Part shown: positions 43,993 to 64,000 of the stretch, in pieces
Numbering within the stretch: position 1 is the stretch's first letter
How the letters are laid out: each line of letters starts with the position of its first letter
Assembly (NCBI GenBank): GCA_050248995.1
Contig: JBFWRI010000003.1
Coordinates: forward strand, 28,619 to 92,618
DNA from: Bdellovibrionales bacterium
GTDB taxonomy: Bacteria > Pseudomonadota > Alphaproteobacteria > JAIXQD01
Reading direction: 5' to 3'
DNA length: 64,000 nt
Made by a program: the position numbers and the translations under genes
Notes under the pieces: generated by a model
Database searches by the model: none
The model's input: only the letters and a program-made list of their open reading frames with translations
What the model was told of the DNA's origin: nothing

Positions 43993-44418
43993 CTACTGCG
44001 CGTAAGCGGGGGCTTCGCCCGAGCCGCCGCGATAGAAGTGACAACTTAACTCGCACTTGCCGTTGCCCTTATCGTCAATACAACAAATGGGCCACTGCGT
44101 AGAGGCTCCTAAGCCAGGTCCCTTTGGGGCATACGATTCAGGTAAAGCACATTTTTCATAAGTGCCTTCGTTTTCAAAGAGCGTCAGCATCCCCTCTGGG
44201 AACCCAAGACGGGTTGTTGCGCATTGATTGGCGAGCGCAAGAACCTGCTCCTGCGTAATACTAGCACGGCAATCAAATGCATTTCCGCACGGAACACTGG
44301 TGAAGAGTTGGGCTGCATTAAACGGCGGGACATTATAGATATTGCCAGGGGGCGGTGTTCCGGCCTGCGCATTCAGACCTGCGATTAAAAGCATAAGCAG
44401 TGCAAAAATATATTTCAT
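43993..44418 (-). CDS. small secreted Cys-rich protein, translationally coupled to minor pilin gene
   Basis: 141 aa. Signal MKYIFALLMLLIAGLNAQA. 9 Cys. ATGA overlap with the upstream gene. Confidence 0.5.
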   Translation of the reverse strand: MKYIFALLMLLIAGLNAQAGTPPPGNIYNVPPFNAAQLFTSVPCGNAFDCRASITQEQVLALANQCATTRLGFPEGMLTLFENEGTYEKCALPESYAPKGPGLGASTQWPICCIDDKGNGKCELSCHFYRGGSGEAPAYAQ

Positions 44419-45794
44419 CGCCCGGTCTCCATTTTTTGTTCAAGCGTTTTCACACGTTGGCGCAGCTCGGCATTTTCTGCGGCCAGCTGGCGCAAAGACT
44501 CAATAATCGGCGCCACAAGCCCCCCATAGTTTACACCTTTGATGCCTTTTTCGTTGGTAGAGACTAGCTCGGGGAACACTTTTTCAACATCCTGCGCCAG
44601 AACACCTAGATTAGGCCGATGCGAACTCTTCAAAGTATAGCTGACCCCATGGATCTTCAGCAACTGATCCAGTGGTCTTTTTAGTTCTGCGATGTTGTCT
44701 TTAAGCCGCCGGTCGGAATCATAGATGAAGCTGGCAGCACGTAATTCACCATTAACAGTCAAGTCGCTGGCCAACGTCAGCGTAGGATCAGCAGCACCGC
44801 CGCCGGCGGTCAGCGCGCGCGAAGCCCCACCGTAATCAAAAAGAATTGACGTTACATCGGCAACATTAGGTGTTGTTACAGTTCCTGTCGCCGCGATAGA
44901 GCTTGCAGCCACAATATCCCCGCCACCCATTTCGATTTGGCCGCCGCCCATTTCGACACTACCACCGGTCATGCGCAAATCGCCGCCGGCCATAATGATG
45001 TTATTTGTCGCGTCTGTCATACGGATATTGTGTGACGATGCATCCGCATCAAGGAAGGATGCCGCCGCTGCGCCCCCCATATACAGGTCGGTTGTCATCG
45101 TGGTCATCGTCGGTGCACCGCTGACAAGGACGCGTGATAGAAAATCACCCGAGGAGCCGGTCGTCAGGTCCAGCGAACTGATAAAAGCAAGGCCCGCCGA
45201 ACGATTAACCGGCGGCGTCACCCCGCCAACAGTAAAATCCGTGACGGGCATTGAGACCGCACCATACGCCGTACGAACCACATCCACAGCCTCGTCAAAC
45301 ACCGAGGCACCTTCGGCGCCGACAAGGCTGGCGATCATCGCGCGCGAGATGGGCGTACTTGCCGTGCCACCGCTGGTGAAGATACCGATCGCGAACATCG
45401 GGTAATCCACGCTGCTGACCGTAACATCGGTCAGGCGGCGCAATACGGCCGAATATGTTGCACCGCTGGGGCTTGTCGCCGGCAAAGTACTATTACGGAA
45501 AGTCTGCACATCGGCTGTAATCGAGCGCGTTGCGCCTTCGGCGATTGGGGTTCCCGCTACATCCCCCGTGCTGGCATCCATGTTGGCATTAAGATAGGCG
45601 CGCGCGCCCTTCAGCCATTGCTGGATCTGCTGTGCCGTAGCCTGGTCCTGAATCTGACGACTGCTGGCAGCCGTCAGCTGGAACAGGCCGGCGACCAGAA
45701 TACCCAGAACAGTCAGAACGATGGCCAGTTCGACCAAGGTAAAGCCCCGCTGGCGATGATGGATATTTTCCGACGACATCATGTATCCCCGCAC
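44415..45794 (-). CDS. type IV minor (tip) pilin-like protein fused to beta-helical repeats and a C-terminal S74 intramolecular-chaperone (tail-fibre/endosialidase) autoproteolytic domain
   Basis: Prepilin N-terminus ...HHRQRG|FTLVELAIVLTVLGILVAGLF (Glu at +5). Central periodic repeats (GGDLRMTGGSVEMGGGQIEMGGGDIV). The C-terminal about 100 aa DSDRRLKDNIAELKRPLDQLLKIHGVSYTLK...GVLAQDVEKVFPELV...GVNYGGLVAPIIESLRQLAAENAELRQRVKTLEQK matches the Peptidase_S74 (CIMCD) domain pattern. Confidence 0.7.
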   Translation of the reverse strand: MRGYMMSSENIHHRQRGFTLVELAIVLTVLGILVAGLFQLTAASSRQIQDQATAQQIQQWLKGARAYLNANMDASTGDVAGTPIAEGATRSITADVQTFRNSTLPATSPSGATYSAVLRRLTDVTVSSVDYPMFAIGIFTSGGTASTPISRAMIASLVGAEGASVFDEAVDVVRTAYGAVSMPVTDFTVGGVTPPVNRSAGLAFISSLDLTTGSSGDFLSRVLVSGAPTMTTMTTDLYMGGAAAASFLDADASSHNIRMTDATNNIIMAGGDLRMTGGSVEMGGGQIEMGGGDIVAASSIAATGTVTTPNVADVTSILFDYGGASRALTAGGGAADPTLTLASDLTVNGELRAASFIYDSDRRLKDNIAELKRPLDQLLKIHGVSYTLKSSHRPNLGVLAQDVEKVFPELVSTNEKGIKGVNYGGLVAPIIESLRQLAAENAELRQRVKTLEQKMETGR

Positions 45795-45806
45795 TTTAAA
45801 TGAGGT

Positions 45807-46334
45807 TTATAGGGTTGTCACCATAGCTAATGCACCAACCGGTATTGTTGCGGGCACCCGCACCTGTGTTCCCGAGACGGACTCGATGTAACTAATCCCA
45901 CCGCCCGATTGCACGATGCCTATGGATGGATCATTAAAATAACGCGTACCTACCTGCGATCGTAATTCAGAAAAACTTATAGCGTTTAGTGTTCCCGTTG
46001 ATATCACATAAGTGACGACAACGCGTTCCGACGCTGATAAGCCGACAGTCGTGCCGGGATTGAAGGAAAGCGTCGGACCGGTAACAGTCAGCCCGGTTGC
46101 CGATGAATTCGTCAGGTTGCCGGCACCATGGGTGCACATGAGCGTATTTTCACTTGTTGCCCCAAGCGACGAATTGATACGCGATTCATTCACAGCGGAG
46201 TTATGGCAGCGGCGCATGATTTCAGCAGCGGCCACTTTGGTATCCTGAAACATGGCCAACTGATCGGTGCCGTACAAAAAGTACAGGCTGGTAAAAACGC
46301 CGGTAAAAACGACAATGCCGAACCAAAGTCCCAT
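45807..46334 (-). CDS. bitopic membrane protein of pilus cluster (function unknown)
   Basis: 175 aa. Single N-terminal TM MGLWFGIVVFTGVFTSLYFLY. No prepilin cleavage motif. Confidence 0.4.
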   Translation of the reverse strand: MGLWFGIVVFTGVFTSLYFLYGTDQLAMFQDTKVAAAEIMRRCHNSAVNESRINSSLGATSENTLMCTHGAGNLTNSSATGLTVTGPTLSFNPGTTVGLSASERVVVTYVISTGTLNAISFSELRSQVGTRYFNDPSIGIVQSGGGISYIESVSGTQVRVPATIPVGALAMVTTL

Positions 46335-62280: not shown

Positions 62281-62282
62281 GG

Positions 62283-63647
62283 CTAGCGTCCCCGGGCGCG
62301 GTCGATGTCAACCGCCAGTTGCGTGGCGCGCAAGAGCTGGATCTTTTCCCGCATTTTAAGGATGCGCCAGTTCAGTTGCGATTCAATCGCTTCCATGCCG
62401 ACAAGCGCTTGGGCAAGGTGACCCTCTTCGCCATTGCCCGTGGTGTTGCGGATGGCGCGCGGCGTTGCGTACAGGTCGGTACTGATGGTGCGCATCATCT
62501 CGTAGTCGCTCATCTTGACTGTACCTTCAAGCTCGCATGTTTGAACGGGGCCGAGAGGCCCTGTCTCGACACCTTCCTCAATGCTGCCAAGAAGGTCGCC
62601 GCTATGCGTTCCCCGGGTGTTGCTTAAGGCGCGGCGATAGGCACAAACCGCCTCGACAACCCATTCGAATGCCCTGTTATCGTCGGTGACTTCGATATCG
62701 ACACCCTTGCGTTTTGTCACCAGCTCTATACACGCGTCCAGCGCCATCATGATGCGGGCATCGGCGCTGCGCTGCTGCACGGCGCGCATAACAGCATCGG
62801 CATTCGCGGTGGCGTTGGCGCCACGCACGCGCTGGGCATATTCGGGCGAAATCGAATTCAGACAGAAGTCGATACCTGCTGTTATGCGCATGGCTTCTGT
62901 AATGTCGCCGCTGCCGTCAGCATATGTATCATTGCCAAAGATTGCTTTATTCGGATCAATGTCCCAATCCGGCATCGGTCCGTTTTCACACGGTGTCGAG
63001 GGCGCGGGCGCGCCTTCGACTGTCGGGCCGCGTTCGGTATCGCAGTTGCGGTACAGGCTATTCCGGTGGCGCGTGTTATTGATGTTGTAAAGCGACGAGT
63101 CATTGGCCGCAGATACCTCATCGGTGCCCGTGAAGATCTTCGCTATTTCGTTCATAACTTCCTGCTGCAGTGCGCGCTGCATCTGCTCGGGCGGGCGCCC
63201 GTCGTCGCCTTCAATATCGGTCATAACGCGCCGCCCACCGGGGGATCGCGTATAATTAAAGCGCGGCGGGCCGCGCCGCGGCCCGTAACTGCCGCCACCG
63301 GCGATATTAGCCACCTGCAGCTGTTCGACACCCGTACAGGTGGGCGACCGCATATTACGGTTTATCGAACGTGCACTTTCCACCTGGCTTGCACGCGCCT
63401 GTTCGGATCGCACTTCCGCGATCGACATGCGTTCGCGGAACTTCATCTGCAGCGAAGCGCTGAAGGCCGACCAGAAGCGGCGCAGAATGTCGCCCACAAC
63501 GGTTTGCGTCATATCACCGATAAAGACTTCACATATCGCCTGGCCGACGACCGGGATGAAGGCCAGCGGGCACGCCTGCGCCGGGCGGGCCTGCACTGTA
63601 AGCAAGACTGCAGCAAAAAAAGCAATAAGGGCGAAGCGCTTCATCAT
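62283..63647 (-). CDS. secreted hypothetical protein (454 aa) with C-terminal coiled-coil-like region
   Basis: Signal MMKRFALIAFFAAVLLTVQARPAQA. ATGA overlap with the upstream partial gene. Confidence 0.45.
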   Translation of the reverse strand: MMKRFALIAFFAAVLLTVQARPAQACPLAFIPVVGQAICEVFIGDMTQTVVGDILRRFWSAFSASLQMKFRERMSIAEVRSEQARASQVESARSINRNMRSPTCTGVEQLQVANIAGGGSYGPRRGPPRFNYTRSPGGRRVMTDIEGDDGRPPEQMQRALQQEVMNEIAKIFTGTDEVSAANDSSLYNINNTRHRNSLYRNCDTERGPTVEGAPAPSTPCENGPMPDWDIDPNKAIFGNDTYADGSGDITEAMRITAGIDFCLNSISPEYAQRVRGANATANADAVMRAVQQRSADARIMMALDACIELVTKRKGVDIEVTDDNRAFEWVVEAVCAYRRALSNTRGTHSGDLLGSIEEGVETGPLGPVQTCELEGTVKMSDYEMMRTISTDLYATPRAIRNTTGNGEEGHLAQALVGMEAIESQLNWRILKMREKIQLLRATQLAVDIDRARGR

Positions 63648-64000
63648 TCGCCACCGCCGCGCGGCCCAACCGGTCTGCCTATCAACGCATCCATGCCATT
63701 ATCAGGGCCATAATCAAGAGACTCGTCTGGCAACTGTGTTGGTGACTGCGGATTTGCCTGCGGCCCCAATGGCGCACCAGCAGGGTACTGCCGGAGATAC
63801 TGGTTATAATTATAGTCTGAAGCCGCCTGGCTGGCTTGCGACCCCAAGTTGTTCAGATTAACGTTCAGGCCTTCAACCGGGCTGCCATACACATCGCCCG
63901 TCAGCAGGTCGACCGACCAGCCATCACACTGAAGCGCGTTAAGGTTGATATCGAAGTTGAACGGATCGAAACCGCCACCGCTTGGTATACACATTAGATT
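63644..64000 (-). CDS. hypothetical protein, partial (N-terminus beyond window end)
   Basis: Open minus-strand frame to the window edge, ending ...GRPVGPRGGGE. Translationally coupled to the downstream gene. Confidence 0.4.
   Translation of the reverse strand, partial: NLMCIPSGGGFDPFNFDINLNALQCDGWSVDLLTGDVYGSPVEGLNVNLNNLGSQASQAASDYNYNQYLRQYPAGAPLGPQANPQSPTQLPDESLDYGPDNGMDALIGRPVGPRGGGE

Follow-up and report, generated by a model that had tools for sequence, protein, structure and literature searches.

A 64,000-nt stretch of a Bdellovibrionales bacterium contig (JBFWRI010000003.1), referred to here at its full length as the window, ends in a block of minus-strand genes that joins an IncI/R64-type thin pilus to dotD, dotC, dotB and icmT of a type IVB (Dot/Icm-like) secretion system. 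We consider it probable, at roughly 60%, that this block is one chromosomal module of a type IVB system of the Dot/Icm kind, a system that is dispersed, inherited vertically and native to a Micavibrio-related lineage and that has retained the ancestral thin pilus. We favor this reading because the block sits in a chromosomal setting between ileS and gap, because the locus recurs throughout the lineage and because other Dot genes are present in relatives. The source organism is an uncultured relative of the epibiotic predator Micavibrio, a genus that NCBI taxonomy files under Bdellovibrionales. The DotC and u288 proteins of the window are 100% identical to those of an NCBI metagenome-assembled genome that bears the label "Bdellovibrionales bacterium".

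The block comprises 21 co-directional genes over about 20.5 kb, and the open reading frame (ORF) list with its translations shows no break in the run from position 43993 to the window edge. Junctions between neighboring genes range from -50 to +182 nt, in agreement with the short or overlapping junctions described by an earlier reading of the window made from the sequence alone (the sequence-only reading). That reading also had the block continue beyond position 64000, which it does, but only for about 0.55 kb before a divergent ileS is reached. Exact matching of window proteins led to short Logan contigs only; one that is identical in sequence (L001) carries the window 992 nt further and places the head end of the block at about 64546, 546 nt past the edge; ileS follows after a 137-nt gap, and its product is 68% identical to the isoleucyl-tRNA synthetase of a relative. 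At the other end, the reported 5-nt distance to gap holds once the gap start is set at the ATG at 43987, with the stop codon of the last gene of the block, u141, 5 nt away. The block is bounded by two housekeeping genes, ileS and gap, and the rest of the window (1-43.9 kb) is ordinary chromosome with polA, proS, a Y-family polymerase gene, secA, recA, ftsY, miaB, prmC and prfA. The tRNA genes of the window lie only at 5 kb and 20 kb, distant from the block, and none stands at either border. A promoter scan did no better than shuffled sequence. There is no terminator in the 5 nt between u141 and gap, and gap may be co-transcribed with pilV and u141 in this genome. As a conserved downstream border gap was rejected; its adjacency was not seen in relatives, which have other neighbors there. 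The ileS border upstream is shared by the window with its two closest relatives and was seen in no other locus.

The type IVB components in the window are a DotB/TraJ ATPase, the outer-membrane core lipoproteins DotC and DotD, and IcmT/TraK, all encoded, like every feature of the block, on the minus strand. DotD/TraH (57573-58091) has a lipobox (LAAC) and scores 92.3 bits with PF16816, well over the cutoff of 27; its 79.7 bits to NF033882 fall under the cutoff of 140. DotC/TraI (56729-57622) matches PF16932 at 256 bits, above the Pfam cutoff, and Legionella DotC (6x62) is its match among solved structures (E 5.5e-41). The DotB-type hexameric ATPase (55584-56750) is best described by the DotB model TIGR02524, although its 396 bits lie below the equivalog cutoff of 463; it scores 248 bits with TraJ and 227 bits with PilT. 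Its best match in the PDB is L. pneumophila DotB (6geb, E 5e-105), with PilT structures at E 1e-50, and these sequence scores put the window protein nearer to the DotB of Legionella than to either IncI TraJ or PilT. The 89-residue gene 3′ of dotB (55271-55540) is icmT, encoding a small inner-membrane protein that reaches 74.6 bits with NF038220 against a cutoff of 40. The sequence-only reading had already listed a PilT/DotB-type ATPase preceded by DotD-like and DotC-like genes, together with a lytic transglycosylase and a DsbC-like oxidoreductase; the family matches support each of these, and the identity of icmT is an addition to its list. The transglycosylase is an SLT enzyme (59454-59951; PF01464, E 2.4e-7) analogous to R64 PilT, with sequence matches to its SLT counterparts in the IncI1 region and the Roseomonas I-type region. 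The oxidoreductase (58438-59412) is a DsbG/DsbC-like periplasmic thiol-disulfide isomerase with a CPFC motif; it scores 68 bits with the DsbG model NF008657, under the cutoff, and its thioredoxin-fold Pfam matches are weak.

Directly 3′ of these genes lies a set that resembles the R64/IncI thin pilus in having a long-leader PilS-class pilin, PilN, PilO, PilQ, PilR and a PilL with a TcpQ domain, with PilP below threshold. The PilL-like protein (53976-55169) carries its TcpQ domain at 52.7 bits (PF10671). PilN (52312-53970) is a lipoprotein secretin with lipobox LITAC and a PF00263 match, and its TIGR02520 score of 284.3 bits is marginally under the equivalog cutoff of 287.65. The type IVb PilO (51025-52299) matches PF06864 (PAP_PilO) at 98 bits, and the PilP-like protein (50199-51053) reaches 28.4 bits with TIGR03021, under the cutoff of 34.65, at a position that is kept in relatives. 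PilQ, an assembly ATPase of the GspE/PilB class (48126-50168), has a 200-residue N-terminal extension and matches PF00437 (T2SSE) at 177.8 bits and IncI1 PilQ at E 3.5e-48. The platform protein PilR (47037-48122) matches PF00482 (T2SSF) and IncI1 PilR (E 3.6e-37). The major type IVb pilin PilS (46432-47004) matches PF08805 (PilS) and PF05307 (Bundlin); its gene starts at the ATG at 47004, with the Shine-Dalgarno sequence AGGAGGAG 5 nt 5′ of it, and its leader is 15 residues long, MVGNLVKKNSKSIRG, with predicted cleavage before FNLIE. Prepilin with a long leader, platform protein, GspE-type ATPase, PilO-like protein, lipoprotein secretin and TcpQ-like protein had all been recognized from the sequence alone, and the Pfam and NCBIfam searches bear out the set. 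The same reading had seen no prepilin peptidase gene in the block; phmmer found no homologue of the IncI prepilin peptidase PilU there or anywhere in the 64 kb.

Directly 3′ of pilS is a strong terminator-like hairpin (46389-46425) with a 15-bp stem followed by a T-run. Through this hairpin, pilin transcripts could be kept in excess over those of the machinery, and u175, pilV, u141 and gap could be set apart as a downstream unit. The u175 protein (45807-46334) has an N-terminal hydrophobic helix and no Pfam or NCBIfam family; ORFs of about 200 residues stand at the equivalent position in relatives, and u175 could play an accessory part as a protein similar to pilins. Only one pilS-type pilin gene is present in the window, and two to six tandem pilS paralogues occur in relatives (L090, L092, L094, L096, L099, L100, L104, L142 and L143), where they may serve pilin diversification or antigenic variation. 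A homologue of PilL/TcpQ is also encoded 3′ of icmT in Micavibrio-labelled loci that have no pilN-S genes (L073, L074, L075, L080 and L081) and on the pilus-less Roseomonas I-type plasmid (L005:7468-7899). Because of these occurrences, the TcpQ-domain "PilL" may be part of the type IVB channel rather than of the pilus.

The last pilus gene encodes a PilV-like minor (tip) pilin (44415-45794) that combines an N-terminal N_methyl prepilin motif with a C-terminal Peptidase_S74 intramolecular-chaperone domain (PF13884, 53.7 bits). The sequence SDRRLK in this protein fits the serine-lysine motif SDxRxK, and the C-terminus matches a phage long tail fibre in the PDB (6f45, E 8e-7). In an AlphaFold2 model the pilin domain (residues 20-210) is confident, with predicted local distance difference test (pLDDT) values above 90, residues 216-350 are poor and the C-terminal domain is again confident; by fold (Foldseek) the latter resembles the MyRF ICA domain and the endosialidase chaperone. 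A prepilin motif and an S74 C-terminus occur together in 121 of the 150 best 50%-identity cluster representatives from a library of 1.84 billion proteins. In metagenome loci the PilV of relatives is about 495 residues long and has the same C-terminal domain, and the middle region is hypervariable, not being conserved even between close relatives. The S74/ICA C-terminus and the variable middle region suggest for PilV the role of a tip adhesin that is trimeric, resembles a tail fibre and binds its receptor through a part that evolves fast. Like CofB and TcpB, type IVb minor pilins that act as trimeric initiators at the tips of other pili, PilV is a large minor pilin that begins with a pilin domain and whose gene stands at the end of a type IVb operon, and a trimeric tip would suit its chaperone domain. 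They differ in that the PilV C-terminus is an auto-processing chaperone of the Peptidase_S74/ICA type, which is known elsewhere from MyRF and from the tail spikes and fibres of phages, and CofB shows no sequence or fold match to PilV beyond chance (Foldseek E ~1). The IncI PilV query had no phmmer match in the window. Only u141 and gap follow pilV, with no alternative C-terminal segments or recombinase gene downstream, although no search aimed at shufflon repeats was made. No paper that brings together an intramolecular chaperone and a minor pilin of type IV pili came up in a literature search; the fusion suggests that the device by which phage tail fibres fold can also serve in making pilus tips. 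The adjoining u141 (43993-44418) encodes a small, secreted, cysteine-rich protein of no Pfam or NCBIfam family, and in four metagenome loci its homologues, with E values as low as 1e-9, adjoin pilV in convergent orientation.

The window holds a module and not a whole type IVB system. Searches with phmmer found none of DotO, DotL, DotM, DotA, DotG, DotH or DotI in the 64 kb, the DotO queries being the Roseomonas and IncI proteins. The sequence-only reading had supposed that the remaining type IV secretion system (T4SS) genes might lie just outside the window, but the block gives way to ileS there. They are found elsewhere in the clade. The VirB4-class ATPase DotO/IcmB, which is mandatory in the TXSScan definition of type IVB systems, is ubiquitous and highly conserved in the clade, with 889 matches, the top 120 of them 63-69% identical, and it shares contigs of 39549, 98838 and 18389 nt with DotC, the first confirmed directly and the other two judged by their matching lengths. 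On a 1.83-Mb contig, the genes for DotO, DotM, a 171-residue protein and DotL lie between an aspartyl-tRNA synthetase gene and glycosyltransferase genes. Within 10 kb of the dotC or pil genes, relatives carry a coupling protein immediately 5′ of the block (L057, L030, L042), DotA (L055, L059), DotI-DotH-DotG either 3′ of icmT (L083) or 3′ of the pil genes (L113), and DotO (L052, L125, L128); DotO is also near dotC or pil genes in L131, and DotM/DotL were found in L088. Because DotO, DotM and DotL, DotA, and DotI, DotH and DotG occupy other loci or abut the pil genes in these relatives, we conclude that the Dot/Icm-like system of the lineage is spread, as in Legionella, across a number of loci on the chromosome. 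A TXSScan survey reported the relaxase-free class pT4SSi in seven marine Micavibrionales genomes (PMC9418006); published TXSScan calls are confined to Micavibrionales.

Recurrence of the locus was assessed by scanning GTDB species representatives with a DotC alignment, which gave 115 DotC-encoding loci, 80 of which were retrieved and annotated with the window proteins; 58 were informative for having enough downstream sequence and 55 for having enough upstream sequence. The loci are labelled Micavibrio sp., M. aeruginosavorus metagenome-assembled genome (MAG), Pseudobdellovibrionaceae, Bdellovibrionales, Alphaproteobacteria or Rhodospirillaceae. The same architecture is present in about 100 species-level genomes with DotC 50-80% identical. 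In the two closest relatives, on contigs of 340 kb and 1.64 Mb, DotC is 81% and 70% identical and the gene order is kept from the 300-residue gene at the head of the block to pilR, together with the divergent ileS. The order u288-SLT-Dsb-u89-DotD-DotC-DotB-IcmT is near-universal in the annotated loci, with u288 present in 49 of the 55. After icmT the pil genes continue as pilL-pilN-pilO-pilP-pilQ-pilR-pilS in 36 of 58 loci; the other 22 have no pil set, and icmT (or a pilL-like gene) is followed by core genes such as truB, ruvCAB and tolQ or by flagellar genes. The view downstream of pilR came from a metagenome scan with a PilR alignment, in which the pilS copies are followed by ORFs of about 200 residues, then by PilV and often by a u141-like gene. 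Two separate dotD-dotC-dotB loci were found in the same MAG (L048 with L062; L066 with L067); provided that the bins are not mixed, this suggests that some genomes have their Dot modules in duplicate. In L087 (8697-12383), a lone T2SSF platform gene lies directly 5′ of dotD-dotC-dotB, with IcmB-DotM 5 kb off, beyond flagellin genes.

The sequence-only reading saw a chromosomal block of R64-like type IVb pilus and Dot/Icm genes with an architecture that it called typical of conjugative plasmids or integrative and conjugative elements (ICEs) or of Dot/Icm-like translocation systems. Its gene classes stand, but its mobile-element framing does not, given the ileS and gap borders, the wide conservation and the absence of an integrase or relaxase among the window ORFs scanned. 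The corresponding alternative, that an IncI-like conjugative element, whether still active or in decay, has integrated here and moves DNA with the pilus as mating-pair stabilizer and DotB, DotC, DotD and IcmT as mating channel, is unlikely in our estimation. Gene content and the adjacency of pil and traHIJK do mirror IncI1 plasmids, DotC/TraI homologues occur on 3763 plasmids, most of them typed as conjugative, and ICEs are known in Micavibrio genomes (PMC3189940). However, no integrase, relaxase or coupling protein was found among the window ORFs scanned or in the 1 kb beyond, and no tRNA gene marks a border. Megablast of the 20-kb block against plasmids gave no DNA match, and the best plasmid DotC is only 44% identical to that of the window. 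The architecture is kept across about 100 species at 50-80% protein identity. Modules of the system are scattered among core genes (truB, ruvCAB, flagellar genes, the aspartyl-tRNA synthetase gene), and the TXSScan class to which the Micavibrionales systems belong is relaxase-free (PMC9418006).

Base composition also bears on this alternative. GC is 54.9% in the block against 57.2% in the rest of the window, and GC at third codon positions (GC3) is 0.563 against 0.673 in the rest of the window and the flanking core genes (Mann-Whitney p = 1e-6), so that the lower GC noted earlier from the sequence is real; the tetranucleotide correlation of the block with the rest of the window is slightly lower and overlaps that of some core segments. 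The lower GC3 would favor an acquired element. Because the architecture is deeply conserved, we read the small shift as a property of envelope and secreted-protein genes or as the trace of an old acquisition, and not as a recent island. The sequence-only reading had itself offered universal conservation in the genus with native composition as grounds for giving up the mobile-element view; the wide conservation comes close to this, and GC and GC3 are modestly lower.

A second alternative is that the block encodes a self-sufficient type IVb pilus that has captured DotB, DotC, DotD and IcmT and has no type IVB channel beside it; DotB would then drive retraction as PilT does, and DotC and DotD would act with the PilN secretin, either as pilotins or as partners. 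The window contains no other type IVB gene, the four dot genes lie immediately 5′ of pilL-pilN, and DotB belongs to the PilT superfamily, as its 227 bits to the pilT family and its matches to PilT structures indicate. R64-type pili are not known to possess a dedicated retraction ATPase. We nevertheless hold this explanation to be quite improbable: the u288-SLT-u89-DotDCB-IcmT module stands without pil genes in the 22 loci described above, genes for DotO, DotL, DotM, DotA and DotG/H/I are widespread in the clade and occur on contigs that also encode DotC, and DotB scores far higher to Legionella DotB than to PilT. It is very improbable that a type II secretion system (T2SS), Tad or type IVa pilus has been misread as type IVb, as the sub-threshold GspE, GspF, GspH and GspG matches of the ATPase, platform and pilins and the reported Micavibrio T2SS lacking GspC, GspG, GspH and GspK (PMC3189940) might suggest, since the Gsp scores are far under their cutoffs (GspE 165 against 630, GspF 61 against 424), the type IVb-specific families PilS/Bundlin, PAP_PilO, TIGR02520 (284 against 287.65) and TcpQ match, and the only sign of a Tad component is a sub-threshold TadE-motif match in PilV of 16.9 bits against a cutoff of 22.9. 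The sequence-only reading had named a Tad or type IVa pilus without T4SS relatives as the outcome that would count against it, and the profile scores instead favor a type IVb pilus with T4SS relatives. Its comparison with the PAPI-1 family did not survive: a PAPI-1/ICEclc Pil2 (MPF_G) element was rejected, PAPI-1 being G-type and the adjacent DotB, DotC, DotD and IcmT being I-type markers, with no other T4SS family detected.

Several points weigh against the reading of the block as a native module of a dispersed type IVB system. The seven Dot proteins searched for are absent from the 64 kb, and completeness of the system in the source organism is inferred from relatives, whose MAG taxonomic labels are those of the submitters. 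The 2011 genome paper on Micavibrio aeruginosavorus reported no type IV secretion system (PMC3189940). No prepilin peptidase lies near the block, and among the relatives a peptidase homologue is near dotD in one only (L023). A GC3 that is 11 points under that of neighboring core genes leaves room for an old horizontal origin. No role can be assigned to u300, u454, u430, u288 or u89.

The closest known arrangement with both gene sets side by side is the IncI1/R64 region (pilI-V and traE-K; locus L006), in which TraH corresponds to DotD, TraI to DotC, TraJ to DotB and TraK to IcmT. The internal orders PilL(TcpQ)-N-O-P-Q-R-S...V and DotD-DotC-DotB-IcmT are shared with the window, as is the company of an SLT enzyme and a Dsb-type isomerase. 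The window differs in being chromosomal and in having its dot block upstream of the pil genes, where that of R64 is downstream, and protein identities are only about 30-35%. No homologues of PilU, PilM, PilI-K or TraE/F/G were detected in the window, nikAB, oriT, TrbC and primase were not found near the block, and in place of the C-termini generated by the R64 shufflon and Rci, the window PilV has the tail-fibre chaperone domain. The window resembles Legionella Dot/Icm in its chromosomal location, in a dotD-dotC-dotB operon with recognizable DotB, DotC and IcmT and, in scanned relatives of its lineage, in distribution over several loci and in being relaxase-free (PMC9418006). Unlike the Legionella system, it belongs to an alphaproteobacterial, Micavibrio-related host and not to a deep-branching intracellular gammaproteobacterium, its icmT adjoins dotB, a full type IVb pilus set is embedded, the clade-specific u288, u89 and u300/u454/u430 are added, and no IcmS/W/Q/R-type proteins are recognizable in the window. 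The closest annotated DotC, at 44% identity, is encoded by the I-type T4SS of a Roseomonas mucosa plasmid (NZ_CP025192), which is also alphaproteobacterial and has DotD-DotC-DotB-IcmT-...-SLT in one block and a TcpQ-domain protein. That plasmid also has DotM and a coupling protein; it differs from the window in holding all its type IVB genes in one 28-kb block and in having no pilN-S, u288 or u89.

Considered as a native module of a dispersed Dot/Icm-like system, the block would function in contact with prey or host and in effector delivery. PilQ, PilR, PilO and PilP with the PilN secretin would assemble the PilS pilus, the tip of which is probably a PilV trimer, folded in the manner of a tail fibre by its C-terminal chaperone, which would then be cleaved off. 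The variable middle of PilV would bind the target surface, and the pilus may hold the target cell as the R64 thin pilus stabilizes mating pairs in liquid. DotC and DotD (outer-membrane core), DotB (docking ATPase) and IcmT would work with DotO, DotL, DotM, DotA, DotG, DotH and DotI encoded elsewhere, and the combined system may translocate proteins, less likely DNA, into the contacted cell. SLT would support insertion into the envelope, and the Dsb protein may form disulfides in the many cysteine-containing periplasmic parts. The target could be either bacterial prey, in keeping with the Micavibrio lifestyle, or a eukaryotic host. Tentatively, we raise the possibility that the pilus and the Dot/Icm-like channel form one attack and attachment apparatus of Micavibrio-type epibiotic predators, in which the PilV trimer recognizes prey, the pilus docks and the type IVB system injects effectors into bacteria. 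If so, bacterial prey would join the targets of type IVB systems, which have been known until now as weapons turned on eukaryotic cells or as conduits for plasmids.

In reviews, type IVB secretion counts as a hallmark of IncI plasmids and of intracellular gammaproteobacteria of the Legionella kind (PMC11338181), and in the literature that we searched pT4SSi in Micavibrionales is mentioned in one sentence only (PMC9418006). An alphaproteobacterial lineage related to an obligate bacterial predator appears from the present analysis to carry a chromosomal, dispersed Dot/Icm-like system, and in most members an IncI-type thin pilus is still wired into the dotDCB-icmT operon. The system looks like an intermediate between I-type conjugation and the Dot/Icm effector translocators that have no pilus, and the block offers candidate genes for attachment and protein delivery by epibiotic predators.

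At the head of the block, u300, u454 and u430 encode fast-evolving signal-peptide proteins. The first gene, u300 (63644-64000 in the window, with its start at about 64546), encodes a 300-residue secreted or membrane protein of no Pfam or NCBIfam family; the complete ORF lies at L001:447-1349, and its same-position homologues are 28 ORFs of related loci. The fast-evolving signal-peptide protein u454 (62283-63647), of no family, is a distant paralogue of u430 and is syntenic in L004 and L007 at only E ~1e-11. A u454 profile finds u430 orthologues and, weakly (19 bits), Rm_h399, a Roseomonas plasmid protein encoded beside DotA; a scan of the genome collection with u454 found nothing. The u430 protein (60988-62280) has a signal peptide and no family, and its gene is syntenic in L004 and L007. 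The best-conserved of these proteins is u288 (59939-60805), a cytoplasmic protein that is strongly conserved, clade-specific and travels with dotDCB; its predicted all-helical model is confident and has no informative structural relative. The small membrane protein u89 (58160-58429) has no family, is always encoded directly 5′ of dotD and is represented by 58 ORFs in related loci. Pfam and NCBIfam scans assigned none of these proteins, PDB sequences gave no match to profiles of the u288, u454/u430 and u89 families, and comparison of these proteins with IncI TraE/F/G/W and unnamed Roseomonas plasmid proteins gave a single weak link, that between u454 and Rm_h399; Pfam held nothing for TraW or Rm_h399.

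Elsewhere in the window, the minus-strand region 11467-18523 encodes two ABC exporters and an HlyD-family protein that adjoin a 736-residue ORF (16313-18523) with no Pfam match. The product of this ORF is very acidic, with repeats rich in D, L and I and the C-terminal end GGLFGGGLFGNG. The region has the look of a type I secretion system together with its substrate and recalls the "hemolysin-related" proteins that Micavibrio is described as secreting.

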